The position numbers and the translations under genes were made by a program. DNA of 64,000 nt, taken from positions 11,407 to 75,406 of the IMG/VR virus record IMGVR_UViG_3300035703_000059; one strand, written 5' to 3'. Source of the DNA: a virus. Of this stretch, positions 1-24,922 are shown one piece after another. The stretch's first letter is position 1; each line of letters starts with the position of its first letter. A model generated the notes under the pieces. It was not told where the DNA came from. It saw only the letters and a list, made by a program, of their open reading frames with translations, and searched no databases.

Positions 1-361
1 CCCGAACTCGGCGCTCGCGGTGCGCTACACGCGCGACCACCCGACCGTCGACCTCTTTCCGTCGAACGAACTGCTGGACCGTCTCCCCGCAGAGGACTGC
101 GACGGGATGGTGGTGCGGCTCGGCGCGCTTCTGCGGGCCATTGGATTCCACGTTCGCACGCGCATTGTGGCGCCGGCCGGAAAGCCGAAACAATGGGCGC
201 ACATCTATCTGATGGTCGCGCCTGTGCCGGGTGTCGCCGACGGATGGTTGCCGCTGGACCCGACGGAGCCGGAGCGCGCGTATCGTGCGCGAAACGCGCC
301 GTTTTGGGAGCCGGGAACGGACCAGATCGATCCGCTGAAACTGGACGGGCCAATCATCTAA
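1..361 (+). CDS. Transglutaminase-like Cys-His-Asp protein (candidate virion maturation protease), 5'-truncated
   Basis: Motifs RYTRD, EDCD (Cys), WAHIY (His), WLPLDPT (Asp); frame is open to the window edge. Confidence 0.75.
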   Translation, partial: PNSALAVRYTRDHPTVDLFPSNELLDRLPAEDCDGMVVRLGALLRAIGFHVRTRIVAPAGKPKQWAHIYLMVAPVPGVADGWLPLDPTEPERAYRARNAPFWEPGTDQIDPLKLDGPII

Positions 362-380
362 GACAACAGGGAGTCCGCGC

Positions 381-701
381 ATGGCCGACAACGGTGAGAA
401 GTTGGAGGGACTGCTCGACGAACGGTATCGCCCGTCGTTTCGACTGATGGTTGGAATGGGCGTAGGGGTGGGCGTGCTGACGTTCCTCATCAGCCAAGCA
501 GAGGCGTTCGTCGAGGCGCGCATCGATAAGCGGGTGCTGGCGGGGAACGCGCTGGTGGAGATTCAGACCAAGCGACTTGAGAAGGTGGAGTACCGGGTCG
601 ACGAGGTTCGCGAGGCGGTGATGGAGATTCGCGCCGACGTGCGGACCTTGCGCGAGTCGCGAAACGTCCCGCCGCCGCCGGCCATCCGAAAGGCGGAGTA
701 G
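381..701 (+). CDS. Single-TM coiled-coil membrane protein
   Basis: GGGAG RBS; TM LMVGMGVGVGVLTFLI; heptad-like C-terminus; N-terminal LEGL motif. Confidence 0.7.
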   Translation: MADNGEKLEGLLDERYRPSFRLMVGMGVGVGVLTFLISQAEAFVEARIDKRVLAGNALVEIQTKRLEKVEYRVDEVREAVMEIRADVRTLRESRNVPPPPAIRKAE

Positions 702-704
702 CCG

Positions 705-1910
705 ATGTCGTGTGAGGTCGTCGCCGGAGAAGCCGCAGACGGTTCCGTCGTGTTGACGGACAATCAATGCCGCACGCTCGACATTCAGAACGTGCTGGCG
801 TTGTCCGACGGGGCCGGAAACCACGCGGCCTGCGGCTCCAAGGCGTGCGTCTACGAGACGAGCGACCCGTCCACGCTGGTCAAGGTGACGAGCGATTGGA
901 TGGACGTGTGGGCGCTGAAAAAGACGGCCGGGATGGCGGACGTCGTTCCCGTGAAGCGGATGTTCAAGCTGAAGGGGAAGCGGCGTTCGGTGAACGGAGT
1001 GGCCGAGAACGCGCTGTACGCCATCGAGGTCGCCCGCGCGCAGCCGCTATCGAAGCGCGACGAGTTGTTCCTCAACACGACGGCGTTCGACGCGATCACG
1101 CTCTACTTCGACCAGATGCTCCTCCCCGGCGTCTCGCCGAAGAGCGTCATTGATTTTCGCGAGTCGTGTCGAAAGACGGTGGATGCGGCGCGGCGCGGCG
1201 GGAAGCCGTACATGACGACGCCGCAGGCCGACCAAGCGGCGTGCGAGGCCGTGACGAGCGACGCGCTCGATGCGGTGGAGCGGATGGCGAAGCGCGGCGT
1301 CTACTTCACCGACGCCCACGCGGGAAATTGGGGCCGGTACAACGGGCGGCTGGTGGCGCTCGATCTTGGGCTTTCAGCACCGCGAGGGACACGGACCCCG
1401 AAGGTGCCAGAACTTGAAGGGATGGGCGCGATGAACGACCGGAAGATGCAAAACATGGTGCTGTTCGGCGCGGGCGCGCTGATTCTGTTCCTGCTTCTGC
1501 GGCCGAAGAAGGCCAAGGCGGAGACGTCGCTGCCCGGCAGCGGCACCGGCAGCGGGGAGTCGATCTCGTCGCTCGGCGAGCGGCCCATCGCGCTCGACCC
1601 CGCGTTCGCGAGGGCTTACGGCCCCGTCAAGGCGTACACGGTTCGCCGGGGTGACAGCCTGTCGAGGATCGCCCAGCGCGAGTTTATGACTGAGGAACTG
1701 TGGCCGTTCCTGTGGGACATCAACCGGACGGCGACGCAGTTCGCGGTTCCCGATGCGCTGGAAATCGGCCAGACCATCTACGTCCCGACGCGAGGCTCAA
1801 CGAATCGGGCATACTACACGCGGTTCGACGCGCACAAGACGTGGTACATGAGCGGCGGTCGCGGTGTTCCGCCGGAGTCTGTTTCTTCGTTCACCGTCAT
1901 CGCGCTCTGA
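705..1910 (+). CDS. Protein-kinase-like domain - TM - LysM fusion
   Basis: GSKACVY..LVKVT, DAHAGNW, ALDLG kinase-fold motifs; TM MVLFGAGALILFLLL; LysM YTVRRGDSLSRIA..LEIGQTIYVP. Confidence 0.75.
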   Translation: MSCEVVAGEAADGSVVLTDNQCRTLDIQNVLALSDGAGNHAACGSKACVYETSDPSTLVKVTSDWMDVWALKKTAGMADVVPVKRMFKLKGKRRSVNGVAENALYAIEVARAQPLSKRDELFLNTTAFDAITLYFDQMLLPGVSPKSVIDFRESCRKTVDAARRGGKPYMTTPQADQAACEAVTSDALDAVERMAKRGVYFTDAHAGNWGRYNGRLVALDLGLSAPRGTRTPKVPELEGMGAMNDRKMQNMVLFGAGALILFLLLRPKKAKAETSLPGSGTGSGESISSLGERPIALDPAFARAYGPVKAYTVRRGDSLSRIAQREFMTEELWPFLWDINRTATQFAVPDALEIGQTIYVPTRGSTNRAYYTRFDAHKTWYMSGGRGVPPESVSSFTVIAL

Positions 1911-1921
1911 GGAGTTGGCCC

Positions 1922-2578: not shown

Positions 2579-2589
2579 GGAGAGAATCG

Positions 2590-7515: not shown

Positions 7516-7590
7516 TGGCTGGCGGGGTAGGAGTCGAACCTACGGCCACGCGATTAACAGTCGCGCGCTCTGCCTCTGAGCTACCCGCCA
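7516..7590 (-). tRNA. trnN: tRNA-Asn(GTT)
   Basis: Minus strand TGGCGGG-TAGCTCAGAGGCAGAGC-GCGCGACTGTTAATCGCG-TGGCC-GTAGGTTCGACTCCTAC-CCCGCCA-G-CCA: full cloverleaf, U1-A72, G73, encoded CCA. Confidence 0.95.
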
Positions 7591-8805: not shown

Positions 8806-9498
8806 ATGGCCGCATTGGCGAATGAGCGCGTCCTCATCATCGGCGACTCGATCACCGTCGGGTCGTTCGGTTCACGCTTGGAGCGGCGCTTCAAAGACGA
8901 GGGCGCGACCGTCAAGCGCGACGCGAAGAGCGGGCGCGCGACGACGTGGTTCTACGCGGACGCGGGCAAGCTGGACGCGGGCCGATTGCCCGGCCTCGCG
9001 GCGTTCAATCCGACGACGGTCATCATCGCGCTGGGGACGAACGATGCGGGGATGTTCACGACGAACGTCGAGCGCGCCAAGAGGTTCTTCGGCAAGGTGA
9101 TCGCCGACCTGCGTGACAACGCGGCGGCTCCGCCGACGTTCTGGTGGGTGACGGCGCCGGCCTTCGACTCGCGCGCGAAGAACGTGGACGCGTCGTGGAT
9201 CGACGCGCAGATTCGCGCCGTTTCGCCGCTGTTCGACAACGTCATCGACGCGCGTGCGCTGACGAGCGATATGACGGCGAAATCGGATGGGCGCACGTCC
9301 GACCTCATCCACTTCACGACGAACGGCGGCGCGCGGTACGCCGACCGCGTGTTCGATGCGTTCATGCAGAAGCGCGGAAAGACGCCCGACGTGGCGCCCC
9401 CGAAGCTGCCTTCGAAGGTCGAGCCGATGACCGTGGGTCTGTTCGTGGCGGCGGCCCTCATCGCTTACGCGGTGTGGGTGTCGCGGAGGCGCGGATGA
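8806..9498 (+). CDS. SGNH/GDSL hydrolase with C-terminal membrane anchor
   Basis: IIGDSIT, SG, ALGTND and DLIH blocks; C-terminal TM followed by RRR. Confidence 0.85.
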   Translation: MAALANERVLIIGDSITVGSFGSRLERRFKDEGATVKRDAKSGRATTWFYADAGKLDAGRLPGLAAFNPTTVIIALGTNDAGMFTTNVERAKRFFGKVIADLRDNAAAPPTFWWVTAPAFDSRAKNVDASWIDAQIRAVSPLFDNVIDARALTSDMTAKSDGRTSDLIHFTTNGGARYADRVFDAFMQKRGKTPDVAPPKLPSKVEPMTVGLFVAAALIAYAVWVSRRRG

Positions 9499-9974
9499 AG
9501 CGGGTCTGCCTGCCCGTGCGGAACAAGAAGGGCGTGTGCGCGCGTGTCGATGCCGAAACAGCCAAGTGGGCGAAGGCGATGACGTGGCACGTCCACAAGG
9601 GGTACGTCGCGACGACGCTCGGCAGCGGGAGCGAGGCGCAGCGGCTCTACCTGCATCGATTACTGGTGCCGACGGACGAGGCCGTGGTCGACCACAAGAA
9701 CGGCGACCGTCTCGATAACCGGCTCGGCAATCTGCGTCCGGCGTCCACCTCGCAGAACGGCGCGAACGTCTCGCGGCTGTCGACGAACAAGTCGGGATTC
9801 AAGGGCGTCGTGAAGCACGGTCGAAAGTTCCGCGCCTACGTTCACAAGAGCGGACGGACGCAGTACCTCGGCACGTTCGACACCGCGAAAGAGGCGGCGT
9901 GCGAGTACGACCGGAACGCAAAAAAGCTGTTTGGGCGATTCGCCAAGACGAACAAGGTCAAGTGCGGCGACTGA
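9495..9974 (+). CDS. HNH endonuclease with AP2 DNA-binding domain
   Basis: LHRL..VDHKNGDRLDNRLGNLR..SQN; NKSGFKGV..YLGTFDTAKEAACEYD. Confidence 0.9.
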   Translation: MKRVCLPVRNKKGVCARVDAETAKWAKAMTWHVHKGYVATTLGSGSEAQRLYLHRLLVPTDEAVVDHKNGDRLDNRLGNLRPASTSQNGANVSRLSTNKSGFKGVVKHGRKFRAYVHKSGRTQYLGTFDTAKEAACEYDRNAKKLFGRFAKTNKVKCGD

Positions 9975-10742: not shown

Positions 10743-11378
10743 ATGTACGACTACGGCATGAACGGTTTTGCGGGTCTGATGGACGACATCAAGTCGAGCG
10801 CCGGTGAGGCGTTCGCTGGCGGCGCCGGCCTCGTTGTCGGCGTGAGCCTTGCCAAGTTCGTCACCGCCAAGGTGGACAAGGCGGTTTCGGAGATGGAGGC
10901 GGGCGCTGGGAAGGACGCGCTCGGCTACGTCACCCCGGCCATCCCGCTGGTTCTCGGCCTTGCGCTGTACGCGAAGTTCCGCAACAGCCCGTCGCTCGCG
11001 GCTCGCAGCCTCGGCGCGGCGAACGGCGCGGGCATGATCGCCTTCTCGCTGGCGACCTACGCCAAGAAGCTGATCGGCCTGTCGAAGAGCGAGGGCGCCA
11101 CGGCGGCGGCCAGCTACATCGGCCTCGGCGCGGTGGACACCTACGAGTCCCCGATCCTCGCCGGCCTCGGCAACTACGGCCCGATCAGCGAGTACCTCCG
11201 CCCCAGCCTCGGCGCTTACGGGATGCGGTCGCCGGGCGCTCCGGTGTTCGTCGAGGACGCTGGCATGGCCGGCGCCCCGACGCAGTTCCAAGAGGTTCGT
11301 GGCAGCGTGAACGGCCTGCACGGCGCTCCGTCGTCCATCGAGATTGTTCCTTCCGCTCTTTCCTCGGTTCTGATGTAA
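10743..11378 (+). CDS. Multi-TM membrane protein preceding the capsid gene
   Basis: AAGGAG RBS; three hydrophobic helices; several xGL/xGF/xGM motifs. Confidence 0.7.
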   Translation: MYDYGMNGFAGLMDDIKSSAGEAFAGGAGLVVGVSLAKFVTAKVDKAVSEMEAGAGKDALGYVTPAIPLVLGLALYAKFRNSPSLAARSLGAANGAGMIAFSLATYAKKLIGLSKSEGATAAASYIGLGAVDTYESPILAGLGNYGPISEYLRPSLGAYGMRSPGAPVFVEDAGMAGAPTQFQEVRGSVNGLHGAPSSIEIVPSALSSVLM

Positions 11379-11457: not shown

Positions 11458-12093
11458 ATGGCCGTTCTGCGTCCCACTTCCGAAACTGGCGTGTACGAGG
11501 TCGAAGGTCTTGGCACCAAGATCCGTTTGATCGAATGGCGTGCCGGCTCCTTCTATGACTCGGTGGCCTTCGCCGCCGGCGCCATCACCCCCGGCACCAA
11601 CCAGCTTCTCTTCCAGAACCTCCAGAACAAGAACCGCCAGCACACCAATCTCGACAACAACGCTGGCCGTCTGCCCGCGCTGACCGAGCTGATCTGCAAC
11701 CGTATCGGCGCGCACATCACGCAGGCCGTCGGCAGCAGCGTCACCGTCGACACCGACATCATCCAGCTTGCTCACGCGGCTTATATGCAGGTCTTCGTGA
11801 ACCAAGATCGCCGGGTCGCGGACCAGCCGCTCTACACCTTCCAGAGCGGCTACGGCATCACCGGCACCACGACCCGCAACGCCACCGGCGTTGTGACGAC
11901 CGGCGTCGCGTCGGCCGCTGCGGCTCCGCAGCTTCTCGTCGCGCAGCCCATCGGCCCGAACGACGCGCTGACCGGCAAGATTCAGGTTGACGCGGCGACG
12001 TGGATCGCCGGCTACGCGAACCCCTCGCTGGCCGCGACCAACGTCGTGACCGTGTTCCTCGACGGCCTCATCAAGAAGCCGCAGGGCGCGTAA
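11458..12093 (+). CDS. Putative major capsid protein, single jelly-roll type
   Basis: 211 aa, all-beta pattern; FYDS..LLFQ..HTNL..GRLP and C-terminal VFLDGL resemble vertical SJR capsid proteins; highly biased codons, strong RBS. Confidence 0.6.
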   Translation: MAVLRPTSETGVYEVEGLGTKIRLIEWRAGSFYDSVAFAAGAITPGTNQLLFQNLQNKNRQHTNLDNNAGRLPALTELICNRIGAHITQAVGSSVTVDTDIIQLAHAAYMQVFVNQDRRVADQPLYTFQSGYGITGTTTRNATGVVTTGVASAAAAPQLLVAQPIGPNDALTGKIQVDAATWIAGYANPSLAATNVVTVFLDGLIKKPQGA

Positions 12094-12209
12094 GTCTCCC
12101 CGACCATCGATTCCCCCGTCGATGGGGGCGCGAGCCGTCAATCCTCACGGATTGGCGGCTTTCGCCTTTGTGGGGTATGCTCGCCGCGACTCACCCGTAA
12201 GGAGACTCC

Positions 12210-12782
12210 ATGCAGATCGCACCGCCTCCCGATAACGCCTATATCCAGACGCTTACGTCGCGGATCATCGAAGGCCGAACGATCACGCCCTACGACTATC
12301 GCGCGATGGTGCTTCCGCTCTACACCACGCTGTCGACGTCGCAGCCCATCGGAAGCGCGACCTACACGATCCCGACGAATATGCGCTTCCGCGTGCGAAG
12401 CATCCTGCCGCACGTTGCGCCGCTCCGCGTGTCGGCGGAGACGATTGCGAACCCCGGCAACTTTGCTCCGCAGAACGTGGCGGGTGACGTGTTCGACGGC
12501 GGCGACGTCATCGACCGTCTCTATGCGAAGGCGATGAACTGCCGCATCAACATCGCGATGCAGAGCCGCGCGTTCGACCTCACCTACAACCAAGCGTTCG
12601 CGATCTCGGACCTCATGGCGGAGAACGGACAGGGTCCGAGCTTCCTCGATATGCCGGGTCTGATTCTGCAAGGAACGACCATCGACTTGAACGCCGCGCT
12701 CATCGATACCGACGCCGACGTGATCGGCAGCCCGACCGAGTACGGCATCGTTCTCGTCGGCGCCTTCATCCGCGTGGACTAA
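12210..12782 (+). CDS. Putative second jelly-roll capsid protein
   Basis: YTIPTNMRFRV, LYAKAMNCRI and C-terminal TEYGIVLVGAFIR; paralog of the next ORF. Confidence 0.55.
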   Translation: MQIAPPPDNAYIQTLTSRIIEGRTITPYDYRAMVLPLYTTLSTSQPIGSATYTIPTNMRFRVRSILPHVAPLRVSAETIANPGNFAPQNVAGDVFDGGDVIDRLYAKAMNCRINIAMQSRAFDLTYNQAFAISDLMAENGQGPSFLDMPGLILQGTTIDLNAALIDTDADVIGSPTEYGIVLVGAFIRVD

Positions 12783-12793
12783 GGGGAAAAACC

Positions 12794-13432
12794 GTGGCGA
12801 TTCTGACTCCCGCTCCGATCAACTTTCAGCAGAAAATCCGCAGCGAACTTGCGGAGGCTCTGCGGCTGAACTTCGGCGACATCTTTCCGACCATCCTGCA
12901 CCTTCGGGTGACGCTGGGCGGGACGCTGAACCCCGGACCGCCCCCGACGGTGACGCTGCCGACCCCCGGCAACGACATCTTCCGCATCCCCGGCGACTAC
13001 TCGCTGCTCGTCGGCGAGATTCGCGGCCACATCGCGCTCAACGAACTGTCGCAGGAGTCGACGACGGCTCCGACGAACACGGGCCTTCTGAACATCGCCG
13101 GTGTGCGTAACCGCGTCGTCGCCAAGGCGCTGAACGCGCGCATGGTGCTGGTCAACGCGGACCGCGACAATCTGAAGTTCGTGGAGACGGACATCGCGAA
13201 CAGCGCGAACCCGCTGGGCATCAGCGCGAACCTCTGCCTCGCGAACCTGCTCCCGGCGGCCGGTGGCTCCCCGATCAAGCTGATCGGGGACGGCGACGTC
13301 ATGCCGCTCATCGTGCCGGGCAACGAGCGCATCAAGCTGACCGTCGCACTCAACGACGAGAACGCGTCGCTGGGCCAGACGGAGTACGGACTGACGCTGA
13401 TGGGCGCCTTCGTGCGTTCGCGGGGTAGCTGA
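12794..13432 (+). CDS. Putative third jelly-roll capsid protein
   Basis: FRIPGDYSLLV, VVAKALNARM and C-terminal TEYGLTLMGAFVR; clear paralog of 12210..12782. Confidence 0.55.
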   Translation: MAILTPAPINFQQKIRSELAEALRLNFGDIFPTILHLRVTLGGTLNPGPPPTVTLPTPGNDIFRIPGDYSLLVGEIRGHIALNELSQESTTAPTNTGLLNIAGVRNRVVAKALNARMVLVNADRDNLKFVETDIANSANPLGISANLCLANLLPAAGGSPIKLIGDGDVMPLIVPGNERIKLTVALNDENASLGQTEYGLTLMGAFVRSRGS

Positions 13433-15225
13433 TGAAAACGGTCGCCGACCAAGTGCGTGAAATCCGCGCCGCTCTCATCGCGCAGCACAAGCGCGAGGGC
13501 GTCGGCGACATCGCCTCCGCGAAGATGCAGACCGAGCGCGAACTGGCGCTCACGAAGATCTACGGGGGCGTCCCCGGCTACTACGGCCCGCCGCCGCCCT
13601 CGCGTGGTCTGAGTGCGGTGTCGAACGCGATCTGCCCGCCGGGATTCAAGCGGGACCGCGTCTCCAATCAATGCACCGTCGCCATCGAAGAGAACCCGTC
13701 GTACCTGCCGGGCATCACCGAGTTCCAAGGCCCGACGCTGATGCAGAACTCGCGCGTCGACAACTTCGTCATGCAGGCGCCGAAGTTCCGTGCGCCGACG
13801 ATGCTGTCGGGCCTCGGTGATCTGTCGACTGATGCCCCGTGGCCGGCGTATACCGCGACTGAGTTGACGTGCAACGCGTTCAGCGGAGACGATGGGTATG
13901 CGAAATGGTCGATGTCGCAAAAAGTCAACCAAGCGGTAATCAAATGGGTGGCCTACTGGAGAAATCCGAATAACACCAGCCCCTCCGGCGGCACCGTATC
14001 TTCTCTTCGCGCCGATTTGATCACGGAGAGGGATGTCACGGACGAATTCAAAAACGCGGTTCGCAAGCGAAACCCCTGTCGCCCCTCTCACATCGATGCG
14101 CTAGTCCGCGCCTTCCCGCCGGGCCGTGGGGCCGGCGTGCTGGCGTGTGAGACAACCTATGAGTGCGCCAAGTACGGCAAGGTCTGCGTGAACGGGGTGT
14201 GCGAGGGTCAGTTAGTGTTCTGCGAGAAGACTGATGACTGCCAGAAGCTCGACTTTACCTACGTCTGCTCCAACGAAATCAGCTCCGTTCGTCCCCAGCC
14301 GCACGCGATATATAGTGCGCCTTACTGCACGCCAGCCCGCGCTAACGAAGTTGCGTTGTGGTCGGCCAAGAAGCGTGCAGCGGCGGCGGCAGCAACGGCT
14401 GAAGCTCGCGCCTTGCAGCAATCCGCGAATCGCGCCCAGCAGGCCCGTCAGCGTGCCGCATCCGGTGCTTCGGCACGAACGGCGGCCATCGAGAGCGCCA
14501 TACCCAGCATTTCTGCGTCGAAGTCTGCGGGGCGCGCGCGGGCAGCCGTTGCCGCAGCGGCAGCAGCAGCGGCGGCTCGCGGCGTTGGTCCGGGGACATC
14601 GACGATGTCGCCGGCCGATGCAGCGGCTCGTCAGCGCGCGGCGGCGGCCGTAGCTGCGGCGGCGGCTGTGGCGCGAGGACGCGGCCTTACGCCGGGAGCA
14701 GGCGCGGCGGCGGCCGATATGTCGCGCGCGGGCCAGCAGGCCACCGCCGACGCGGCGGCAGCGCAGGCGGCGCGTCAATCGTCGGCCGACAAGGCGGCGT
14801 GCCGACCGGAGTGCAAGACGGGCGAGGTCGCGGAGCGCATCCCCGGCACGAAGTGCTATCGATGCGTCGTTCCGCCGCTCCCGACCGACACGAAGCCACC
14901 CGAAACCAAGGTGTGCGACCCCGGATTCGTTCTCAACGCCGACGGCGGCTGCGTTCCGGCCACGCAAATCGAGCGTCCGCCGGAGTGTCCGGCGTGTCCG
15001 AAGGTGCGATGCCCGTCGTGTCCGCCCCAGCAGTCGTGTCCGACCTGCCCGCCGTGTGACGTCACCGGCGGATACGGTGGCAGCGGCGGCGGCGGTAGCG
15101 GCGGCGGTGGGGGTGGCGGCGTCACCTACATCGACAAAGAGTGTCCGGCCTGCCTTCAGAAGAAACCGAGCATTTGGCCGTGGGTGGTCGCCGGCGTTGC
15201 GACCCTCTACGCTGTCACCCGATAA
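13432..15225 (+). CDS. Large Cys-rich/Ala-rich protein with C-terminal TM
   Basis: LSGLG motif; Cys repeats (CETTYEC..CVNGVC; CPxCP); Ala-rich helix; C-terminal TM. Confidence 0.75.
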   Translation: MKTVADQVREIRAALIAQHKREGVGDIASAKMQTERELALTKIYGGVPGYYGPPPPSRGLSAVSNAICPPGFKRDRVSNQCTVAIEENPSYLPGITEFQGPTLMQNSRVDNFVMQAPKFRAPTMLSGLGDLSTDAPWPAYTATELTCNAFSGDDGYAKWSMSQKVNQAVIKWVAYWRNPNNTSPSGGTVSSLRADLITERDVTDEFKNAVRKRNPCRPSHIDALVRAFPPGRGAGVLACETTYECAKYGKVCVNGVCEGQLVFCEKTDDCQKLDFTYVCSNEISSVRPQPHAIYSAPYCTPARANEVALWSAKKRAAAAAATAEARALQQSANRAQQARQRAASGASARTAAIESAIPSISASKSAGRARAAVAAAAAAAAARGVGPGTSTMSPADAAARQRAAAAVAAAAAVARGRGLTPGAGAAAADMSRAGQQATADAAAAQAARQSSADKAACRPECKTGEVAERIPGTKCYRCVVPPLPTDTKPPETKVCDPGFVLNADGGCVPATQIERPPECPACPKVRCPSCPPQQSCPTCPPCDVTGGYGGSGGGGSGGGGGGGVTYIDKECPACLQKKPSIWPWVVAGVATLYAVTR

Positions 15226-15236
15226 GGAGAATCGAT

Positions 15237-16544
15237 ATGGCTAACAATCGTCGAAACGTGGTCCCCAGCCAGATTGCCCCCCAGCTTATGCAGATGCGCG
15301 ATCTGTCTGCCGGCAACGACATCTACCGTCAGTCGCGCCGCGCCGTCGAGGCGATGGCCGCGCTGGAGCGTCGGCGTCAAATTCTGACGTCGAAGGGCTA
15401 CGTCTCTGAGGCGGGCCGCACGTTGCAGGGCATGGCGGATGTGTTCGCCGCCGCTCCGACGCTGCCGGAACTGGAGAACGCGATCAAGCAGCTTCTCCCC
15501 GACGGCTCCATCGTCAGCGGTCGCGAGTATTACGACCGCATCCAGAAGCAACTGAACCCGGTCTGGTACAACGGCGGCTACTCCCGCCCCTCGGACTTCA
15601 ACGAGTTCGTCAAGCAGAACCTCAAGGTGACGAACTACCCGGCCGAGTACCAGCCCTACGTCATGCCGGGCGTGCAGGCCGCGTCGTACTTCTACGTCAC
15701 GCAGCAGGCGCAGAAGGCCGGTTCGGCTCTCAGCGGCTTCAGCCCCGCTCCGCGCAGCGTCGTCGAGGGCGCGCGCATGGAGGAGCAGGCGCGCAAGAAG
15801 GCTGTGGCGCTGATGGCGCTCGCGGGCCTTGGGCGAATCGGTAAGGGCGTTGAGCGTTGCTGGGGATTCAACTGCCCCGACGAGACGGGTGACTTTGAGT
15901 TCACGGTTCCCGCGTCGATTGTGAATTCCAAGCTGACGGGCATCGATTACTTGAAGATGAACACGTCATGGATGTCGGGGACGGCGGGATGCCAGACCGA
16001 AATCACCAATAAGTCCGGCGGCAAGGTGTTCGGCCTCGCCATCGATGACGGCGACTCAAACAGCTACAACAACGCCAACGCGATCCGTCGAGTGAAGGCC
16101 GCCGCCGTCGCGCAGGCGCTCTACAAGGTGGGCGGCGAGGCGTACTTGACGCTTCCCAACCTCTACACCTATGGCGCCATGAAGGCGCATGACGTGCGAG
16201 AGCTTGAGCAGCTTATCCGCACCTATGGTACGGCAGACCGGATTGCAGCCAGCGCACAGAAACCGCCCGACACGTTGTTCGGGGACGGGTCGAGTTCTCG
16301 GTCGAGTAGCTGTAAATTCGACATGGGTAAGATGCCCTCGCTGGACGACGTGGCGAAGGTTTGGGACACCGTTTCGTCGCGGATTCCCGGCGGCGGCGGA
16401 GAGGTGACTCCTCCTCCGGGCGGCGACACGCCTCCCCCCGACGACGAGGAGAAGGGCGGGATCGATGCGCTGACGATGGTCGGCGTCGTCGGCGTCCTCG
16501 CCCTCGGCGGCATCGCGCTCTACTTCGCGCGCCAGAACCGATAG
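15237..16544 (+). CDS. C-terminally anchored virion protein
   Basis: AAGGAG RBS; LQGM, LSGF and LAGLG motifs; Pro/Gly linker and C-terminal TM. Confidence 0.75.
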   Translation: MANNRRNVVPSQIAPQLMQMRDLSAGNDIYRQSRRAVEAMAALERRRQILTSKGYVSEAGRTLQGMADVFAAAPTLPELENAIKQLLPDGSIVSGREYYDRIQKQLNPVWYNGGYSRPSDFNEFVKQNLKVTNYPAEYQPYVMPGVQAASYFYVTQQAQKAGSALSGFSPAPRSVVEGARMEEQARKKAVALMALAGLGRIGKGVERCWGFNCPDETGDFEFTVPASIVNSKLTGIDYLKMNTSWMSGTAGCQTEITNKSGGKVFGLAIDDGDSNSYNNANAIRRVKAAAVAQALYKVGGEAYLTLPNLYTYGAMKAHDVRELEQLIRTYGTADRIAASAQKPPDTLFGDGSSSRSSSCKFDMGKMPSLDDVAKVWDTVSSRIPGGGGEVTPPPGGDTPPPDDEEKGGIDALTMVGVVGVLALGGIALYFARQNR

Positions 16545-16554
16545 GAGGCGTGTC

Positions 16555-16812
16555 ATGGCTTGTTCCGCAGACGTTTTGACGAAGTACCCGGCCGGCACGC
16601 TTGAGAACTACAAGCGGTATCCCAACGTCCAGTTCGCGAATGAGTGCTGGTACGGCTACGACGGCGTCAACACGGTCGTTTGGGCGCAAGATCCCGCCGT
16701 GCTTTACAAGGGGCAGGTCGACGACAAGATGAGCACCACGCAGATGATCGGGTGGGGCGTTCTTGGCCTCGCCCTCGTCTACGGGATCTGGTCAGCGTCG
16801 AAGAGCCGATAA
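16555..16812 (+). CDS. Small C-terminally anchored protein
   Basis: GGAGG RBS; Cys pair; C-terminal TM. Confidence 0.7.
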   Translation: MACSADVLTKYPAGTLENYKRYPNVQFANECWYGYDGVNTVVWAQDPAVLYKGQVDDKMSTTQMIGWGVLGLALVYGIWSASKSR

Positions 16813-16824
16813 CCGGGAGAAGCC

Positions 16825-17412
16825 GTGGCCGAAACTCGTCGATTTTCACAGGCCAACGACTTCGGATTCGTCAACCGTCAAGACGACGAGGTGATGTGCG
16901 CCGCAAGCGGCGCCGTGCCGTATCGGACGGTCTGCCAAGTCATCGATGACGCGGCGATCTACTACGCAACCGCCGGGGAAGGCGCCCTGCTCGACATCCG
17001 GCGCTGGTACAGCCAAAGCCCCGAATTCTTCCCCGGCTCGTTCCTCCCGGCGGGCGCGATTCCGGCGTTCTACCGGGCGATTCTGGCGCGTGCGTTTTTC
17101 GCCGAGTTTGGCGGCGCGAACTTCGTCCCGACGCTTCGGCAGATGATCGTCGTGCTGAACATGGTCGAGGAACCGCGCGGGCGTGAGGACGACTACGCCA
17201 AGACGCGGACGGCGGTGAAGGCGATCCTCGGCGTGTGCGAAAAGACGTTCAACGGACAGCCCGCGTGCAGTCCGGGGGAAATATCGTGGGCCGCAGAGCG
17301 GATGAACGCCCTTGATCGGGCAGAAACCGCCGGCCCCGGCGTCAACATGATGCTCATCGCCGTTCCGGCGCTCTTGTTTGCGGGCGCGCTGCTGCTTCGG
17401 CGGCGCGGGTAG
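16825..17412 (+). CDS. C-terminally anchored protein
   Basis: GTG start with GGGAG; 4 Cys; TM followed by RRRG. Confidence 0.7.
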   Translation: MAETRRFSQANDFGFVNRQDDEVMCAASGAVPYRTVCQVIDDAAIYYATAGEGALLDIRRWYSQSPEFFPGSFLPAGAIPAFYRAILARAFFAEFGGANFVPTLRQMIVVLNMVEEPRGREDDYAKTRTAVKAILGVCEKTFNGQPACSPGEISWAAERMNALDRAETAGPGVNMMLIAVPALLFAGALLLRRRG

Positions 17413-17421
17413 GGGAACGCG

Positions 17422-19521
17422 ATGGCCGACAACGAGAACACCACACCGCCGGGATTCGTCAGCACCTTTCCCGTGTTCGCTGAGTGCGATTCCATTCTGC
17501 GCGCAACGCGGGAGGGCATCGGTCTTTTGACGGGTGGGGAAGAGGGCAGGCGCCGGGTCGATGTGAAGTACCTTCGATGCCAGCTTCTCACGCAGAGCCG
17601 GACCGAACTTGGAGATCGGTCGCTGCTCCAGTTTCCGCTGTGGTGGGACTGCCGGCCGACGAGCGGCACCTTCGATCCGGGTGACGTTTTGCGGCGGGCC
17701 TACGCAAAATACACGCAGAAAGACCCCAACTCTGCGGACATCGGATTCATCGCAGGCATCCTTCGCGAGATCGACGACCTTCAAGAGGGGGGCGGCTCCA
17801 GCGAGGACCGGGCCAACTACGAGGGAAACGCGGGTTCGTACACCATCATTCAGAACCTCCTGCTGGCCCTCTCCGACTTCCCTCGGCAGGGGTCGGACGG
17901 ACGCGCGAACCTTGAGACAATCGTCGATTTGTCGCTGCGCGTGACCGACTCGATCAAAGACATCATCGTCAAAGCGTTTCCGGCGGCGGGCGGCGTCGGC
18001 GACAACGTCGTCCGCATCCTCAAGATTTTCCTCGACGGCATCTTCTACATGGGTGACGCGGTCGCCGAGGAGAAGGCGCTGCGGACCGAGATGGCCTCGC
18101 GGCTAATCTCCGACGAACGCGTGACGAACGTCGGCGGCGGCTACGAGAAGTTCTACGGCAACCGGCCATCGATGATCACGACCCGGTCGTGGTGCGCTGC
18201 CGGAAACGCTGCGCGCGACAACTACCTCGCCCCCGGAACGAACGGCGCGTACCTTCGGGCGAAGACCCGATACGATGACGCGCGGCGGTTCTTGGACACG
18301 TTCGCCGCGATGCTTGAGCGGACGCAGGGCGAGTCGACGCCGAAGACGCGCGAGCGGGTATTCGCACGATTCCAGCTAATCGGAAGCTGGATGCTGGCGT
18401 ATGCCGCCGACGAGGTATGGCTGTCGGATTACATTACCTACGACACCATCTTCGACCGCCTTCGATTGTCGGCGGCAGACGCGGTCGTGAAGGTGACGTT
18501 TGAGCCGAGGCTCATCGAGTTCAAGCGCCTCTACCCGTATTCGGCGCGGGCGGCGACTCGTCTTGAGTGCGATTACCCCGACTGCGACACGGATTTCTGG
18601 ATTCCGTTTTGGGCGGACACGAAAGCCGGAAACTGGAATCTGAAAACCGGAACTGCCGACATCGGTGTGACGGAAAAGGCGATCAGAGACGCGACGAACA
18701 TCACCTTCGACTTTTACGCCACCGCGATTCCGAAGCGAAGCGTGACCGGGCGCCGGTACAACAGCTACAAGTCGAAGTCGGTCGTGGACGTGTCGCTTAC
18801 GGTCATGCCGCTTGTGAACACGCTGTATGAGTGGGCGCGAGCCGCTGCCCCTACATGGGGGAAGATTAAGCAATACAATCTGATCCGTTACGCGCTGACC
18901 GGGTACGCGACCGGCGCCGTCAAAGACTTCGGCGAGTACGCGAAGAACCGCATCGATGTCTACGACCCGGCGTTTCGCCAGAGGTTCATCGACACCCCGC
19001 TGACGTGGCAGCAGATCGCGCTCTACATCATCGCCGGGCGCACGGACCTTGGGCCGCAGCCGAGGCCGGAAGAGTTCAACGTCGCGGCGACGCGGTGTCC
19101 CGGCGGCTCGTCGGACACGTCCTGCCTGCCCTGCGAGAAGATCAAGAATCGGCGCCCCATCGGCGCACGGGAAGTCCAAATCCCGATGCTCGTCGGCTAC
19201 ACGCCGCCTCTGGCGACGTTCGTCGGCAGCACGAACTATCGGGGTTCGGTGGAGTACGCGGCGTGGCGAAAGGCGCTCGTCGATGCGGGTTATCCGGGGT
19301 ACTACATCGACTGCATCGAACGTGACGTGACGTGGGTGTCCTCGCGGGCTGGCGAGGTGATTTCGGTTCGTCCGCCGCCGCCGCTCGTCGTCAGTCTACC
19401 GCTGGCCGCTGTGCCGAAGCCCCGCGCGGTGCGGACGTCGGACATTCCCGAACTCACCGGAATCACCCGGCCGCTCGTCGCCGAGATCGCGGGGCCGATG
19501 CTGCCTCGAAGGACTCGATAA
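17422..19521 (+). CDS. Large hypothetical protein (699 aa), putative virion/entry protein
   Basis: Long ORF in the structural operon; no family recognised. Confidence 0.7.
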   Translation: MADNENTTPPGFVSTFPVFAECDSILRATREGIGLLTGGEEGRRRVDVKYLRCQLLTQSRTELGDRSLLQFPLWWDCRPTSGTFDPGDVLRRAYAKYTQKDPNSADIGFIAGILREIDDLQEGGGSSEDRANYEGNAGSYTIIQNLLLALSDFPRQGSDGRANLETIVDLSLRVTDSIKDIIVKAFPAAGGVGDNVVRILKIFLDGIFYMGDAVAEEKALRTEMASRLISDERVTNVGGGYEKFYGNRPSMITTRSWCAAGNAARDNYLAPGTNGAYLRAKTRYDDARRFLDTFAAMLERTQGESTPKTRERVFARFQLIGSWMLAYAADEVWLSDYITYDTIFDRLRLSAADAVVKVTFEPRLIEFKRLYPYSARAATRLECDYPDCDTDFWIPFWADTKAGNWNLKTGTADIGVTEKAIRDATNITFDFYATAIPKRSVTGRRYNSYKSKSVVDVSLTVMPLVNTLYEWARAAAPTWGKIKQYNLIRYALTGYATGAVKDFGEYAKNRIDVYDPAFRQRFIDTPLTWQQIALYIIAGRTDLGPQPRPEEFNVAATRCPGGSSDTSCLPCEKIKNRRPIGAREVQIPMLVGYTPPLATFVGSTNYRGSVEYAAWRKALVDAGYPGYYIDCIERDVTWVSSRAGEVISVRPPPPLVVSLPLAAVPKPRAVRTSDIPELTGITRPLVAEIAGPMLPRRTR

Positions 19522-20528: not shown

Positions 20529-20900
20529 ATGGCCGATATGATTGCGATGCTGAACGGGCTGGGCGCCTACGGCGAGTTTCCGATTGGGGACGTCGATCCG
20601 GCGACGAGCGCGCGCATCGGCCAGACCTCGCCGGGGACGGGCCTGTCGAACGAGCAGATCACCGTCTACAACCCGCAGCCGTACACGCTGGGGAAGATCG
20701 ACGACGAGGAAGAGGGTCTGAGCGGGACGACGTGGCTGTTCATCGTGCTGGGCCTCGGCGCTGCGGCGTGGGGCATCTCCAAGATGGTCAAGTCTGCGTC
20801 GCCGGAGCCGGGCGAGGACTTCCTCGACGGCATCGCCGAGCCGGAGATGATCGAACTCAACGCGCCCCCCGCACGCACGCGGGGCAAGGGGAAGCGATGA
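20529..20900 (+). CDS. Single-TM protein
   Basis: ATCGATG start; MLNGLGA motif; central TM. Confidence 0.7.
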   Translation: MADMIAMLNGLGAYGEFPIGDVDPATSARIGQTSPGTGLSNEQITVYNPQPYTLGKIDDEEEGLSGTTWLFIVLGLGAAAWGISKMVKSASPEPGEDFLDGIAEPEMIELNAPPARTRGKGKR

Positions 20901-21532: not shown

Positions 21533-21823
21533 ATGAAGCCGATGCTGACGTTCGTCTACATGGATGGGTGCGGGGCGTGCGAGACGGCGAAGCCGGAACT
21601 CGACGCGTTCAAGGCCGCGCACCCGGAGATCGCCATTCGACGAATCGACCTTCTCGCGGTCCGCTGGCCGGAGGGGTCGTGGGCGCCGACGGCGACGCCG
21701 ACCTATCTCGCGGAGTTCGGGAACCGTCGGCCGGTGGGGTACGTCGGCGCGCTCAAGAAGGCGCAGATCGAGCAGTTCCTTCGTGAAGCCGCGCCGCGAC
21801 TCGGACTCGCGGCTCCGTTCTGA
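21533..21823 (+). CDS. Thioredoxin-fold protein (CGAC)
   Basis: FVYMDGCGACETAKP and cis-Pro motif ATPT. Confidence 0.85.
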   Translation: MKPMLTFVYMDGCGACETAKPELDAFKAAHPEIAIRRIDLLAVRWPEGSWAPTATPTYLAEFGNRRPVGYVGALKKAQIEQFLREAAPRLGLAAPF

Positions 21824-21832
21824 GGCGCATCG

Positions 21833-22150
21833 ATGACTCTCCTCGCCATCCTCGCCATCGGATTCGCCGCCGCCGGCCTCGCGCTCGTCGTTCGCGCGCT
21901 CGTCCCGACGCTGTGGCTCCTCATCAAGCCGTTCTCCTGCGACCTCTGTATGTCGTGGTGGGGGTCGGTGGTGTTCACGCTTCTCGCCGGGGAGTGGTCC
22001 GTGGACGCGCTGACGGGCCTGTTCGGAGGCGTCGCAGTCTCGGTCGCGATGCTGAAGGTCGTCTCTTCGTTGTCCGATGTGGGCGCCGCGCCCCCGCCCA
22101 CGTTGTCGGATTCCCCCGACTTGGGCGATACTTTTCCCGAAAAGGAGTGA
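21833..22150 (+). CDS. Membrane CxxC protein (DUF1360-like)
   Basis: Three hydrophobic helices with KPFSCDLCMSWW. Confidence 0.65.
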   Translation: MTLLAILAIGFAAAGLALVVRALVPTLWLLIKPFSCDLCMSWWGSVVFTLLAGEWSVDALTGLFGGVAVSVAMLKVVSSLSDVGAAPPPTLSDSPDLGDTFPEKE

Positions 22151-22154
22151 CCCC

Positions 22155-23000
22155 ATGTTCTCTTCCGGCAATCCCGAACTGATGTCCGCCCTCGCCGGCA
22201 TCGCGCGCCTCGGCGCCGCGCCGAGCGTGACCAAGCGTGCGAAGAAGCTGCCCGCAGAAGCGCGCGCGGAGTTGAGGTCGATTCAGAAGCGGTTTGCCGA
22301 TGATCGCAAGGCCGCCATCGAAGCGCTGTTCGCGAAGTACCCCGCAGCGAAGATGCTGTCGCCGAAGGAGATGAGCGAGATTCGGCAGGTCGTCGATCTC
22401 TTCATCCTCAACGACGACTCCAAGGTGACGTCGTCGGGCGTGCAGTCGGACGGCGGCATGACGCTCAAGGTCGGCGGCAAGGTCGTCGCCGAGCGCAAGG
22501 CTCCGTACTCCCGATTCATGCGCGTCTGTGCCGGCGAGTTCGGTGCGGATATGACCAGCCGCCGCGCGGCGAACGCGCTGCTCGACGCGCTGGGCGCGGG
22601 CCTCTCGTTCCGTGACCGCGACGGTCGCGCGTTCATCACCCCGAAGGGGCGCGGCGCCGGTCGTCTGGTGTCCGAGTCGGCGTGCCACACCGTCGAGGTC
22701 AACGCTTCGATGCGTAACCGCGCAGTCGCCAACGTGAACCGCGCCATCCGCGAAGCCGGTCTGGACATCCAGCGGTTCGCCATGCCGACCGAGGGCGCAT
22801 CGGCGACGTCGCCGGTGCAGCGCGCGGTCGCGGCTCGCGAGGCGACGGCTGCGGCCGAGCGCGCAGCGGTGGCCGAGGCGTATCGTGGAAGTCAGTCGGC
22901 GGCGGCGCAGTACGAGTCGATGGTTTCGCGCCCCACCAAGCGTCAGCAGGCTGCACGGAAGGCGGCGGCGACCCGCCGTCGGAACGCGTCGCGTCGATAG
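22155..23000 (+). CDS. Basic Ala/Arg-rich protein (core-like)
   Basis: AAGGAG RBS; LAGI motif; C-terminal AARKAAATRRRN. Confidence 0.7.
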   Translation: MFSSGNPELMSALAGIARLGAAPSVTKRAKKLPAEARAELRSIQKRFADDRKAAIEALFAKYPAAKMLSPKEMSEIRQVVDLFILNDDSKVTSSGVQSDGGMTLKVGGKVVAERKAPYSRFMRVCAGEFGADMTSRRAANALLDALGAGLSFRDRDGRAFITPKGRGAGRLVSESACHTVEVNASMRNRAVANVNRAIREAGLDIQRFAMPTEGASATSPVQRAVAAREATAAAERAAVAEAYRGSQSAAAQYESMVSRPTKRQQAARKAAATRRRNASRR

Positions 23001-23069
23001 TCAGTCAACCTTGCGGCGTAGACCGCACAACAAGCGGCACCCCCGCCGCGCAAGAAACAGGAGGCCGTT

Positions 23070-23258: not shown

Positions 23259-23341
23259 TCGACGCCCTGCACCACTAGGGTCGATGAACGCAGGGGTCGT
23301 CGGACAGGTGCCGACGGCCCCTCGTCTTTACGGAGGAATCG

Positions 23342-23677
23342 ATGGAACCGACACCGTTCACAGGCAGCTTGACGTTCGATCACGTTCTCGCGTTTCTCGG
23401 CGCGCTGGTGCCGCTGATGAGCGCGCTCGCGGCGTTCCTCAACCACAAGGTCCGCGTCAGCGGGACGGCGTCGCCGTTCCTGCTCAACGCGGCGGCGGCG
23501 GTGAACGTGCTGGCCGTCAACGTCGACAAGGCGACCCAGCTTGCGAAGCTCGCACGCGGTCTGCCGGTGCCGTCGACTCCCGCACCGGCGGCTCCCGCCG
23601 TGGTGGACGTCGGCGCAGCGGCCGTTGAGCCGGCGCCTGCGGGTCAGCCGGAAGTGTGTCCGACGTGCGGGCGCTAA
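23342..23677 (+). CDS. Putative holin-like membrane protein
   Basis: GGAGG-AATCG-ATG; two hydrophobic helices; ends CPTCGR. Confidence 0.5.
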   Translation: MEPTPFTGSLTFDHVLAFLGALVPLMSALAAFLNHKVRVSGTASPFLLNAAAAVNVLAVNVDKATQLAKLARGLPVPSTPAPAAPAVVDVGAAAVEPAPAGQPEVCPTCGR

Positions 23678-23937
23678 TCGCGTCGGTGGTGACGGGGCTG
23701 GTCGTCGCGCTTTCGACGGCTGCCCTGTTCCTGCTCCGCGTCATCCCTCGCCGGGACGAGGAGCAGCGTCAGCGGGCGGAGGCATTGGCCGCCGACCTGC
23801 GGCGGAAGATCGAGGAAGCCAAGGCCGCTCGCGCGGCGGCGGTCGCGCAGCAGGTCGCGGTGGTGACGCAGGCCGGCGAGGCGGACAAGAGCGCCGACTC
23901 CGTGGGCGTCGCGAACCGAATCATCGGAGGCTCGTGA
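23656..23937 (+). CDS. N-terminal TM plus coiled coil (spanin-like?)
   Basis: TM followed by a helical domain; start uncertain. Confidence 0.45.
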   Translation: MSDVRALIASVVTGLVVALSTAALFLLRVIPRRDEEQRQRAEALAADLRRKIEEAKAARAAAVAQQVAVVTQAGEADKSADSVGVANRIIGGS

Positions 23938-24158
23938 TGCAGAACCAGAAGAACACCCAGCTTGTTCGCATGGCCGACGTGTTCGTCATCGGCCCGCTGA
24001 TGACCTACGGCGGACTCCGCATGATGAAGAGCGGCGAGAAGCTGCTCGGCCTCACGCTCGCGGCGTTCGGTCTGGCGACCGTCGTCTATAACGGCGTGAA
24101 CTACATCGATATGAAAGAAGCGCTCGACCGAGAGGACCGCATCGATGGGCCGATTTGA
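23937..24158 (+). CDS. Small two-TM protein
   Basis: GGAGG RBS, TGATG overlap; DVFVIGP..VYNGVNY. Confidence 0.6.
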   Translation: MQNQKNTQLVRMADVFVIGPLMTYGGLRMMKSGEKLLGLTLAAFGLATVVYNGVNYIDMKEALDREDRIDGPI

Positions 24159-24594
24159 GTGGGTCTTGATCGCGCTGTACGGCGCGCTCCTCGCGTGGAT
24201 TCCGATGTGCCACGACGCGCGCGCCGACGAGGCGTGCCGGGCAGTCGGCGACACCGTCGTCTGCCAGCGCGCGGGGTTCGACACGCTCGTCGACAAGTGC
24301 GTGGACGCCGACACGCGGGCCAAGGTCTGCTCGATCAATCTCTTTGAGGCGGTCCGCCAGCGCGACGAGTCGCGCGCGGCGTTCGACGCCTGTGCGGCAG
24401 CGCCGCGCCCCGTGCCTCCGCCCCCGCCGGAGCCGTCCCGGCGTCCGCTGGTGGCCGTGGCCGTCGCTGCGGCAGGTGCGGCGGCTGTCGCCCTGTCGGC
24501 GACGCTCGACGTGCCTGTGGGCGCCCGTGCGGCCCTCGCAGGGGCCGGCGTGCTGGGCATGGGCGCGGGTGTCGGCCTCGCGGTGGCGTGGTAG
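24145..24594 (+). CDS. Cys-containing membrane protein (lysis accessory?)
   Basis: N-terminal signal, Cys-containing helix, Pro linker, two C-terminal TMs. Confidence 0.55.
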   Translation: MGRFEWVLIALYGALLAWIPMCHDARADEACRAVGDTVVCQRAGFDTLVDKCVDADTRAKVCSINLFEAVRQRDESRAAFDACAAAPRPVPPPPPEPSRRPLVAVAVAAAGAAAVALSATLDVPVGARAALAGAGVLGMGAGVGLAVAW

Positions 24595-24640
24595 GCTCGC
24601 GGGGACACCGCGCAACTGATTGCGCCAACAGGAGTCATCG

Positions 24641-24922
24641 ATGGCAGCCAAGAAGAAGAGGAAGTCCTCGTCGAAACGCAAGATGACGGAGGCGCAGTAC
24701 CGCGCTGCCGTGCGCGCAGGACGTATCGTTCCGGCCAACTACCAAGCGGCCGTGATGGCCGACGTTGATGACGAGTGGAACCGGGCCGTGCGCCGGCAGC
24801 AGGGCGTCGGCGGGCTTACCAGCCCCGACGGCGTCATGGGATTGGCCGTCGGCGCGGTGATCGGAATCGTGGGCGCGCTCCTGTGGAAAGCGTCGAGCGA
24901 CATCGCGAAGAAAGACGCGTAG
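24641..24922 (+). CDS. Basic protein with C-terminal TM
   Basis: AGGAG, ATCGATG; MAAKKKRK; VGGL motif before the TM. Confidence 0.65.
   Translation: MAAKKKRKSSSKRKMTEAQYRAAVRAGRIVPANYQAAVMADVDDEWNRAVRRQQGVGGLTSPDGVMGLAVGAVIGIVGALLWKASSDIAKKDA

Follow-up and report, generated by a model that had tools for sequence, protein, structure and literature searches.

A recurrent L-x-G-L-G motif in late proteins and a candidate processing enzyme of transglutaminase fold in a probably tailless virus

We analyzed a 64,000-nucleotide stretch of viral DNA (referred to as the window), which corresponds to bases 11407 to 75406 of one viral contig of 75,406 bp that carries a terminal direct repeat of 127 bp (IMG/VR record IMGVR_UViG_3300035703_000059), with respect to two features: a short motif, L-x-G-L-G, that recurs in the late proteins, and a membrane-anchored transglutaminase-fold enzyme whose gene runs into the start of the window. 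The G+C content is approximately 65%, and genes were called by a codon model (high G+C). The minus-strand half carries phage-type replication genes (i.e., those for a family A DNA polymerase, helicase, primase, methyltransferase, ParB, integrase, AAA_24 protein, and PD-(D/E)XK nuclease). The plus-strand late block extends from the first base of the genome to window position 24,922, comprises 50 proteins (11,293 amino acids), and encodes an SLT transglycosylase, a VanY-like endolysin, a LysM protein, and an SGNH hydrolase. At least one membrane helix was predicted in 20 of these 50 proteins, often at the C terminus, whereas only 5 of the 66 proteins in the other half have one. Pfam and PHROG scans of approximately 60 proteins recognized few families and detected no terminase, portal, or HK97-type capsid protein. 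Together with the helix-rich block and the jelly-roll capsid protein described below, this suggests that the virus is probably tailless, that the plus-strand block is its particle module, and that the particle probably has an internal membrane.

The 211-residue protein encoded at 11458 to 12093 was predicted to adopt a single jelly-roll fold (predicted local distance difference test [pLDDT], 93.4; 61-sequence alignment). Structurally, it is closest to the capsid protein of Sulfolobus polyhedral virus 1 (SPV1; 6oj0), a virus that contains a membrane, followed by many viral jelly-roll coat proteins, and position 11458 is the true start of the gene. Three adjacent genes of approximately 200 amino acids each lie at 11458 to 13432, the first being the one whose structure was predicted, and all three are conserved in three related genomes (G002 to G004; see below). 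A C-terminal TEYG..L.GAF strand is common to the second and third genes, and the jelly-roll capsid family comprises 138 representatives at 50% clustering.

The initial annotation had recognized a transglutaminase-fold enzyme in the open reading frame at 1 to 361, and this was confirmed by an AlphaFold 2 (AF2) model, Foldseek and VIA structural matches, and an invariant Cys-His-Asp triad, although the reading frame covers only the C-terminal 119 residues of the protein, designated P0001. The AF2 model had an overall pLDDT of 81.6 (core, >90; linker, <50), and all top Foldseek matches were transglutaminase-like, i.e., PeiP (E = 2.4e-4), TglA, a Cytophaga cysteine protease, TG2/TG3, PNGase, and Rad4. 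In VIA alignments, P0001 gave a Z score of 12.2 to the putative protease 3kd4 (root mean square deviation, 2.9; 140 aligned), Z scores of 8.4 to 9.2 to TG3, PNGase, PeiP, PeiW, TglA, factor XIII, and TG2, and a Z score of 7.8 to both LapG (4fgo) and an N-acetyltransferase. The DCD triplet containing Cys171, as well as His205 and Asp224, is invariant across 33 homologs at 43 to 66% identity, and so are two further cysteines. In metagenomes, 65 homologs were found, none of them named and none with a Pfam domain. Distant homologs (L017 to L022; BLAST to P0001, ~1e-8) contain Transglut_core (PF01841) at 32 to 52 bits (1e-12 to 1e-13), and Cys171, His205, and Asp224 of P0001 align to positions 53 to 108 of this Pfam model. 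On its modeled fold, P0001 is thus a member of the transglutaminase-like superfamily with the Cys-His-Asp order conserved; the assignment draws on the fold and on the transitive link through the distant homologs, since the score of P0001 itself is below the threshold. No match to PF06035 (bacterial transglutaminase-like cysteine proteinases [BTLCP]/LapG; MEROPS C93) was detected in P0001, and the structural Z score to LapG is no better than those to other transglutaminase-like proteins.

According to the alignment, P0001 consists of an N-terminal membrane helix, a hypervariable disordered linker, and the catalytic domain, and the membrane anchor stands in place of a signal peptide. Inteins occur directly before the catalytic Cys in two homologs (AGD/C...HN/CDD), namely, P0036 from a metagenome and L012:1267-3408; one of the two is a mini-intein, and the other is long enough for a homing endonuclease. 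Inteins are typically located in the active sites of indispensable proteins.

The motif had initially been described in a broad form, [LMVI]xG[LMFI](G/A/S), said to recur on virion proteins, and we tested this 5-residue form together with its 4-residue form, taking motif counts on the whole genome (G000; the window plus the upstream sequence L001). In the late block, the 4-residue form was observed 84 times against 58 to 62 expected, and the 5-residue form was observed 30 times against 12 to 13 expected (z, 4.6 to 5.4), an excess that held with local shuffles of 10 to 25 residues; in early genes, the 5-residue form was observed 5 times against 8 expected. The difference between late and early genes therefore stood for the 5-residue form as counted, but in the window it did not survive correction for the choice of pattern, as the motif ranks 108 among 55,508 same-shape class patterns in the late set (p = 2e-5). 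The broad motif in the window, particularly its 4-residue form, is mostly noise, and the window alone is marginal; what is real, and beyond chance once relatives are added, is the narrower L-x-G-L-G. In this genome alone, the tripeptide GLG showed no excess (13 versus 9.25), and an all-against-all 9-mer comparison of the late proteins found no common segment beyond shuffles, which indicates that any tag is short. The motif excess in this genome sits downstream of the enzyme region, around the capsid genes. The two general adenovirus consensus types showed a small excess, with z values of 2.9 and 2.1 in the relatives and 2.2 and 0.9 in this genome.

Three related IMG/VR records were found by alignment of the capsid protein and one by alignment of the enzyme, and all four were fetched in full (G001 to G004). 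G002 is complete (85.8 kb, with terminal repeats), and G003 and G004 are 70 to 76% complete. Common to the relatives and this genome are the replication core, the integrase, and the three capsid genes; late genes often lack detectable homology. The late blocks of the four relatives contain 19 copies of LxG[LM]G against 2.9 expected (z, 9.5) and 32 copies of [LMVI]xG[LMF]G against 10.7 expected, whereas LxG[LM]G occurs in their nonlate genes 5 times against 1.8 expected. The original 5-residue form was found 72 times against 42.7 in their late genes and 33 times against 29 in their nonlate genes. In an unbiased scan of 160,000 exact a-x-b-c-d patterns, LxGLG ranked first in the relatives (18 versus 2.26; p = 4e-11) and also first over all five genomes (23 versus 2.96; p = 1.5e-13). 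When homologs were collapsed, LxGLG was present in 16 of 118 late protein families, compared with 3.2 ± 1.7 expected and a maximum of 9 in 300 shuffles. The order of residues matters as well: the forward pattern occurs 23 times, its reverse 6 times, and reversed and same-composition permutations 3 to 6 times. Position 4 is preferentially Leu, the 23 copies of LxGLG comparing with 6 of LxGVG, 4 of LxGIG, 4 of LxGAG, and 1 of LxGFG, and Leu is also preferred over Met.

The placement of the copies agrees with the proposal that they lie at termini and at domain-membrane boundaries, in that they favor N termini and linkers beside membrane anchors. Among the 43 copies outside membrane helices, 21 are located in the first 30 residues, where 15% were expected (p = 1.5e-7). 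Further copies in the relatives are found at extreme C termini or, in the same arrangement as in the enzyme itself, directly behind an N-terminal anchor with a short charged linker. Of 60 homologs of the enzyme, 33 have G[LMF]G in the linker (shuffled expectation, 9.1 ± 2.7), and 19 have the full motif there (shuffled expectation, 4.3). L-x-G-L-G is kept in orthologs at only 30 to 56% identity, and the residue after it is frequently Ala, Asp, or Ser. Synonymous variation occurs in three of the four fixed codons, and x is unconstrained, indicating that selection acts on the peptide; on the same grounds, an explanation at the DNA level, such as a promoter or another site at gene starts, was ruled out. 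Over all copies in G000 to G004, the second Leu is encoded by CTC in 81% of cases versus 48% genome-wide, and CTG is used only after GGG and never after GGC, a bias that fits avoidance of CCWGG after GGC.

The individual copies in the window are listed in Table 1 with the other features. Judging from the alignment of its orthologs, we consider the LAGLG of the multipass membrane protein at 10743 to 11378 to be the clearest individual instance of the tag within the window, with GLG and a following Tyr invariant in this family at 31 to 36% identity. In the same protein, the N-terminal MNGFA(G) reads MSGLAG in a 56%-identical homolog, and all five members of the family alignment (A4) have G11. 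The tail of this protein and its orthologs also holds another repeated element, [LM]xGAPxQ[VF]Q; over the five genomes, 15 copies of LxGAP compare with 2.3 expected and 8 copies of PxQVQ with 0.3 expected. In the 20529 family, the N terminus MA[DE]MIAMLxGLG is kept in G002 and G003 and the remainder has diverged beyond BLAST detection, and in the 22155 family, LAG[IL]A is kept at 41 to 46% identity behind N-terminal stretches of unequal length. The LEGMG of the LysM protein (the LysM domain being a Pfam match) is partly conserved, with LAGMRG and LAGNRG in orthologs and different residues in others. For the two most motif-rich proteins of the window, homolog searches yielded one relative each, at 56% and 85% identity.

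Other candidates were rejected. LEGL(L) in the gene at 381 to 701 (402..416, plus strand) is replaced in orthologs by IASV, IGAV, IESV, or VKAV, without the Gly, and five further peptides (MVGMG, LVGLG, VLGLG, VLGMG, and VMGLA) all lie within predicted membrane helices. The VEGLG of the jelly-roll capsid protein, which fits the motif but had not been named in the initial annotation, was likewise discarded as a tag, as the 61 members of the family read IP[AS][LT]G at this position and do not conserve the central Gly; it is probably a structural turn. Conservation in homologs was thus found for the core tag in several families and not for LEGL or the capsid VEGLG. The peptides named in the initial annotation do exist, although the numbers attached to them were gene starts, and approximately half of them are unconserved, lie within membrane helices, or could not be tested.

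Table 1. Features of the window discussed in the text (window positions unless indicated)
Feature	Position	Strand	Remarks
ORF of transglutaminase-fold enzyme P0001	1..361 (whole gene, L001:10994-11767)	+	C-terminal 119 of 257 amino acids; gene start 412 nt upstream of the window
Catalytic triad of P0001: Cys171; His205; Asp224	98-100; 200-202; 257-259	+	Coordinates verified
LEGMG in LysM-domain protein 705-1910	1413..1427	+	~15 residues before membrane helix, on the side opposite the LysM domain
MNGFA(G) in multipass membrane protein 10743-11378	10758..10772	+	Residue 6; gene just upstream of capsid genes
LAGLG in 10743-11378	11157..11171	+	Gly/Tyr-rich C-terminal tail; G141-L142-G143 and Y145 invariant in five orthologs (31-65% identity)
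VNGLH(G) in 10743-11378	11307..11321	+	Third copy, same C-terminal tail as LAGLG; aligned to VNGFHGLG, LAGLGSS, and LQGLGST in orthologs
VEGLG in capsid protein 11458-12093	11500..11514	+	Between strands of high-confidence model (pLDDT 93.4)
LSGLG in Cys-rich, tail-anchored 597-aa protein 13432-15225	13804..13818	+	Residue 125; from sequence; no ortholog in G001-G004
LQGMA and LSGFS in 15288-16544	15423-15437; 15729-15743	+	Weaker copies; from sequence
LAGLG in tail-anchored protein 15288-16544	15819..15833	+	From sequence; only homolog 85% identical, uninformative
LNGLG in protein 20529-20900	20550..20564	+	Residue 8, N-terminal copy; N terminus conserved in orthologs
LAGIA in protein 22155-23000	22191..22205	+	Residue 13, Ala-ending variant; start 22155 follows AAGGAG ribosome-binding site
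tRNA-Asn	7516-7590	−	
SGNH/GDSL hydrolase	8815-9498		C-terminal membrane anchor
HNH endonuclease	9474-9974		Within late block
Thioredoxin-like protein	21533-22150		Weak Pfam match (E = 8e-4)

The charges flanking its anchor suggest that the catalytic domain of P0001 faces the cytoplasm. Based on tail anchors, the polarity of the LysM protein, and charges flanking the anchor, the testable copies of the window are predicted to lie on the same side, i.e., in the N-terminal portions of proteins anchored by their tails and, in the 705-1910 protein, across the membrane from the LysM domain. We looked upon L-x-G-L-G as a short linear recognition signal on otherwise unrelated late, mostly membrane-associated proteins that is processed by the enzyme acting as a protease, a tentative reading to which we assign a probability of roughly 0.4. 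The reader of the tag would be the virus's own membrane-anchored cysteine enzyme (Cys171-His205-Asp224), which would work as a processing protease at the viral membrane, on its cytoplasmic side facing the capsid; it might trim short N-terminal peptides, cut tails, and free domains from their anchors, its own catalytic domain included. The enzyme is a candidate for this role because it is the only protease-type protein recognized, the Pfam and PHROG scans having revealed no second protease-type domain, and because the motif lies between its own anchor and catalytic domain. Peptidases with a transglutaminase fold are present among the structural matches of P0001, i.e., LapG, PeiP/PeiW, vasohibin, and CPR-C4. 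We infer the cleavage of the motif, the enzyme as the cutter, the position of the scissile bond, and the timing. A complex prediction that paired the tail of protein 10743-11378 with the enzyme domain, run without controls, yielded no verdict (score, 0.00).

Several results weigh against processing by this enzyme. G003 and G004 carry the motif, and the enzyme was not found in the recovered parts of these 70 to 76% complete genomes. The 20-kb neighborhoods of the enzyme in the relatives L002 and L005 show no motif excess, and with respect to the window-only excess, which was lost on correction for pattern choice, a control on the early proteome yielded equally extreme patterns. P0001 itself scores below the gathering threshold of Transglut_core (13.2 versus 23 bits; E = 0.11). 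Its best matches include wall isopeptidases (PeiP/PeiW), cross-linking transglutaminases, and acyltransferases, so that hydrolysis of the peptide backbone is one possible chemistry among several. Conservation in the 20529 and 22155 families also reaches further upstream of the motif than a P4-P1' site would, which hints at a binding element. Finally, a docking tag that is never cut fits the terminal bias, the conservation, and the copy in the enzyme linker equally well.

In such a docking or sorting scenario, which the initial annotation had offered as its alternative, the motif would load proteins into the particle by fitting a pocket that a capsid, scaffold, or membrane protein provides and would not be cut by the transglutaminase-fold enzyme, which would do other work, such as hydrolysis of wall peptides at entry, cross-linking, or acyl transfer. 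Precedents are the cargo-loading peptides of encapsulins and the binding half of the T4 capsid-targeting sequence. This explanation accounts for the terminal bias of the copies and for the upstream residues conserved in two families, the several copies per tail in the 10743 family would permit multivalent binding, and the enzyme, which bears the tag and has a homolog annotated as structural in Salisaeta icosahedral phage 1 (hereafter SSIP-1), could be mere cargo. A role at the cell wall would also suit a top Foldseek match that is a phage pseudomurein endoisopeptidase and a genome that encodes SLT, VanY-like, and LysM cell wall proteins. Nevertheless, proteins with a membrane anchor should get to the viral membrane unaided by a tag, and in many cases the tag stands right beside such an anchor; no receptor of the tag was identified; and a catalytic domain predicted on the cytoplasmic side, behind an N-terminal anchor here and before a C-terminal one in SSIP-1, is awkward for a lysis enzyme. 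We regard an uncut docking tag as the main rival, possible but somewhat doubtful. Quite improbable, in our view, is that the motif is the cleavage site of a host protease or of an unrecognized viral one, although most of the viral genes belong to no recognizable family and could hide a second protease, and G-L-G meets the small-x-small rule of several membrane proteases. Most N-terminal copies are not preceded by a hydrophobic core like that of a signal peptide, no other protease domain was found in the scans, and the linker of the transglutaminase-fold enzyme itself bears the motif.

The capsid VEGLG, a turn between strands at a position where the family consensus differs, raises the question of whether L-x-G-L-G is a recurring structural element without a dedicated reader, such as a tight turn or helix cap favored in stretches that are Gly rich or close to a membrane; the late proteins do contain much Gly and many membrane helices (at least one helix in 20 of the 50). 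Shuffles preserving local composition and the reversed and permuted controls fail to reproduce the excess, however, and neither the strict Leu at position 4 nor the N-terminal bias is expected of a generic turn, so we give this idea little credence. An artefact of chance or composition, arising from a loose pattern, holds for many of the 4-residue copies and would explain both the loss of the window-only statistics on correction and the empty 9-mer comparison, but for the core it is refuted, as a prespecified pattern replicated in four other genomes and came first in the unbiased scan. A further variant, by analogy with sortases, is that the enzyme is a transpeptidase or acyltransferase, in which Cys171 would attack L-x-G-L-G and the acyl group would be passed to a lipid head-group amine or to a Lys of a capsid or membrane protein. 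This chemistry is conceivable because the fold is common to cross-linking transglutaminases and N-acyltransferases, and we hold it to be a long shot.

Processing by the viral enzyme had been likened to the adenovirus system, in which the adenovirus protease (AVP) cuts (M/I/L)XGX-G and (M/I/L)XGG-X sites in proteins IIIa, VI, VII, VIII, mu, and TP, and L-x-G-L-G is a subset of the type 1 consensus (PMC3386624). The two systems are alike in having one viral cysteine enzyme (adenain; MEROPS C5, clan CE, in the case of AVP) and one Gly-centered consensus that recurs in numerous particle proteins, whether at the N terminus, at the C terminus, or internally. AVP is packaged in the virion, and here the SSIP-1 homolog is annotated as structural. 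The likeness to adenovirus is analogy only, however: the folds are unrelated, and the order Cys171, His205, Asp224 of the transglutaminase-like enzyme differs from the His-Glu-Cys order of adenain and clan CE. Adenain was absent among the structural matches of P0001 by Foldseek and VIA, which by itself proves nothing. Furthermore, the enzyme here is membrane anchored and has no known peptide or DNA cofactor, the host is bacterial, the capsid proteins are single jelly rolls, and the motif is known from sequence. LapG, which frees an adhesin from its anchor by cutting a short motif of small residues (PMC3032545), offers a second parallel. As a bacterial transglutaminase-like cysteine proteinase (C93), it shares the Cys-His-Asp fold with P0001, but it is soluble, periplasmic, and calcium dependent and acts on a single class of giant adhesins, at a di-alanine motif, and P0001 has no significant C93 Pfam match.

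A homologous catalytic core is found in a cultured tailless, membrane-containing phage, SSIP-1, whose gp34 (JN880423.1, 21296 to 22210; tblastn, 5e-4; phmmer, 7e-10; profile, 5e-12) is annotated as "structural protein." It differs from P0001 in having a C-terminal instead of an N-terminal anchor, shares approximately 36% identity over 84 residues, and has no assigned function; its tail anchor, too, is predicted to place the catalytic domain on the cytoplasmic face. The late proteins of SSIP-1 show a modest motif excess (6 versus 1.9), with G[LMF]G copies near termini and anchors. Motif-like peptides in SSIP-1 include NRGLGA in gp37, RAGLGL in ORF52, LKGIA in gp46, and MGGFS in gp53. In T4 (capsid-targeting sequence and gp21 prohead protease) and phiKZ (gp175), short N-terminal signals load unrelated head proteins and are then removed at a simple consensus, so that short N-terminal signals common to unrelated particle proteins are a shared trait. 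These proteases are serine enzymes of the herpesvirus/HK97 assemblin type that act on a Glu-based consensus in tailed phages without a membrane, in contrast to the transglutaminase-fold cysteine enzyme here. PeiP and PeiW, pseudomurein endoisopeptidases of archaeal phages (8z4f and 8jx4; VIA Z, 9.0 and 8.6), are likewise virus-encoded Cys-His-Asp hydrolases of transglutaminase fold; unlike P0001, they are lytic, have wall-binding repeats, act on wall isopeptide bonds, and have neither a membrane anchor nor a tag system. By analogy, the logic of the proposed system resembles the maturation systems of adenovirus, T4, and phiKZ, and the enzyme fold and the virus group differ. Our literature searches found no paper that connects a transglutaminase-like enzyme to particle maturation in phages or to viruses with jelly-roll capsids.

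The remainder of the genome has few recognizable relatives. Neither megablast with the initial 24.9 kb nor tblastn with a 699-residue protein matched any phage record, searches of PDB chain sequences gave no match for the enzyme profile, a 798-residue protein, or the 699-residue protein, and no provirus was present in the genome contigs searched with the capsid alignment. Five consecutive late genes (13432 to 19521), including those of the Cys-rich 597-residue and the 699-residue proteins, have no BLAST homolog in G001 to G004, and this region appears from the comparison to be a variable cassette within the particle module, flanked by conserved capsid and SLT genes. Upstream of the window, L001:6326-10746 encodes two large proteins between the conserved 798-residue protein and the enzyme, one of them with collagen-like repeats matching phage tail-fiber families (phrog_819; 1e-21); the pair is absent at that position in the relative L005 and is probably a host-recognition insert. 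The only Walker A proteins in the whole genome are an SbcC-like protein (38090 to 39757) and the AAA_24 protein (45215 to 46084). No candidate packaging ATPase was recognized; gp40 of SSIP-1 has a Walker A motif, and no homolog of it was seen in this genome. The thioredoxin-like gene adjoins that of a small membrane protein, both being kept in G002 to G004, and Cys-rich late proteins are numerous, the enzyme having its two additional invariant cysteines. In the early proteins (25000 to 64000), the tripeptide Ile-Asp-Ala occurs 17 times against 3.45 expected, probably as the protein-level shadow of an ATCGAT-containing palindrome.

Among eukaryotic viruses with internal cores or membranes, adenoviruses, poxviruses, and African swine fever virus depend on Gly-specific cysteine proteases. 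To our knowledge, no proteolytic maturation has been described for bacterial tailless, membrane-containing jelly-roll viruses (PRD1, PM2, the sphaerolipoviruses, and SSIP-1), and full-text literature searches revealed no such step for these viruses. A tag on at least 16 unrelated families, together with a cysteine enzyme that is particle associated according to the SSIP-1 annotation, provides a directly testable hypothesis for how these viruses load their membrane proteins or bring them to maturity, and SSIP-1 is a cultured relative in which the idea can be tested. The tag is, besides, a practical marker of particle proteins in genomes with almost no recognizable families. If the transpeptidase variant were true, particle proteins would be covalently stitched to the internal membrane or to one another. 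If cutting by the transglutaminase-fold enzyme is true, the system would be a convergent counterpart of that of adenovirus, built on a different fold.

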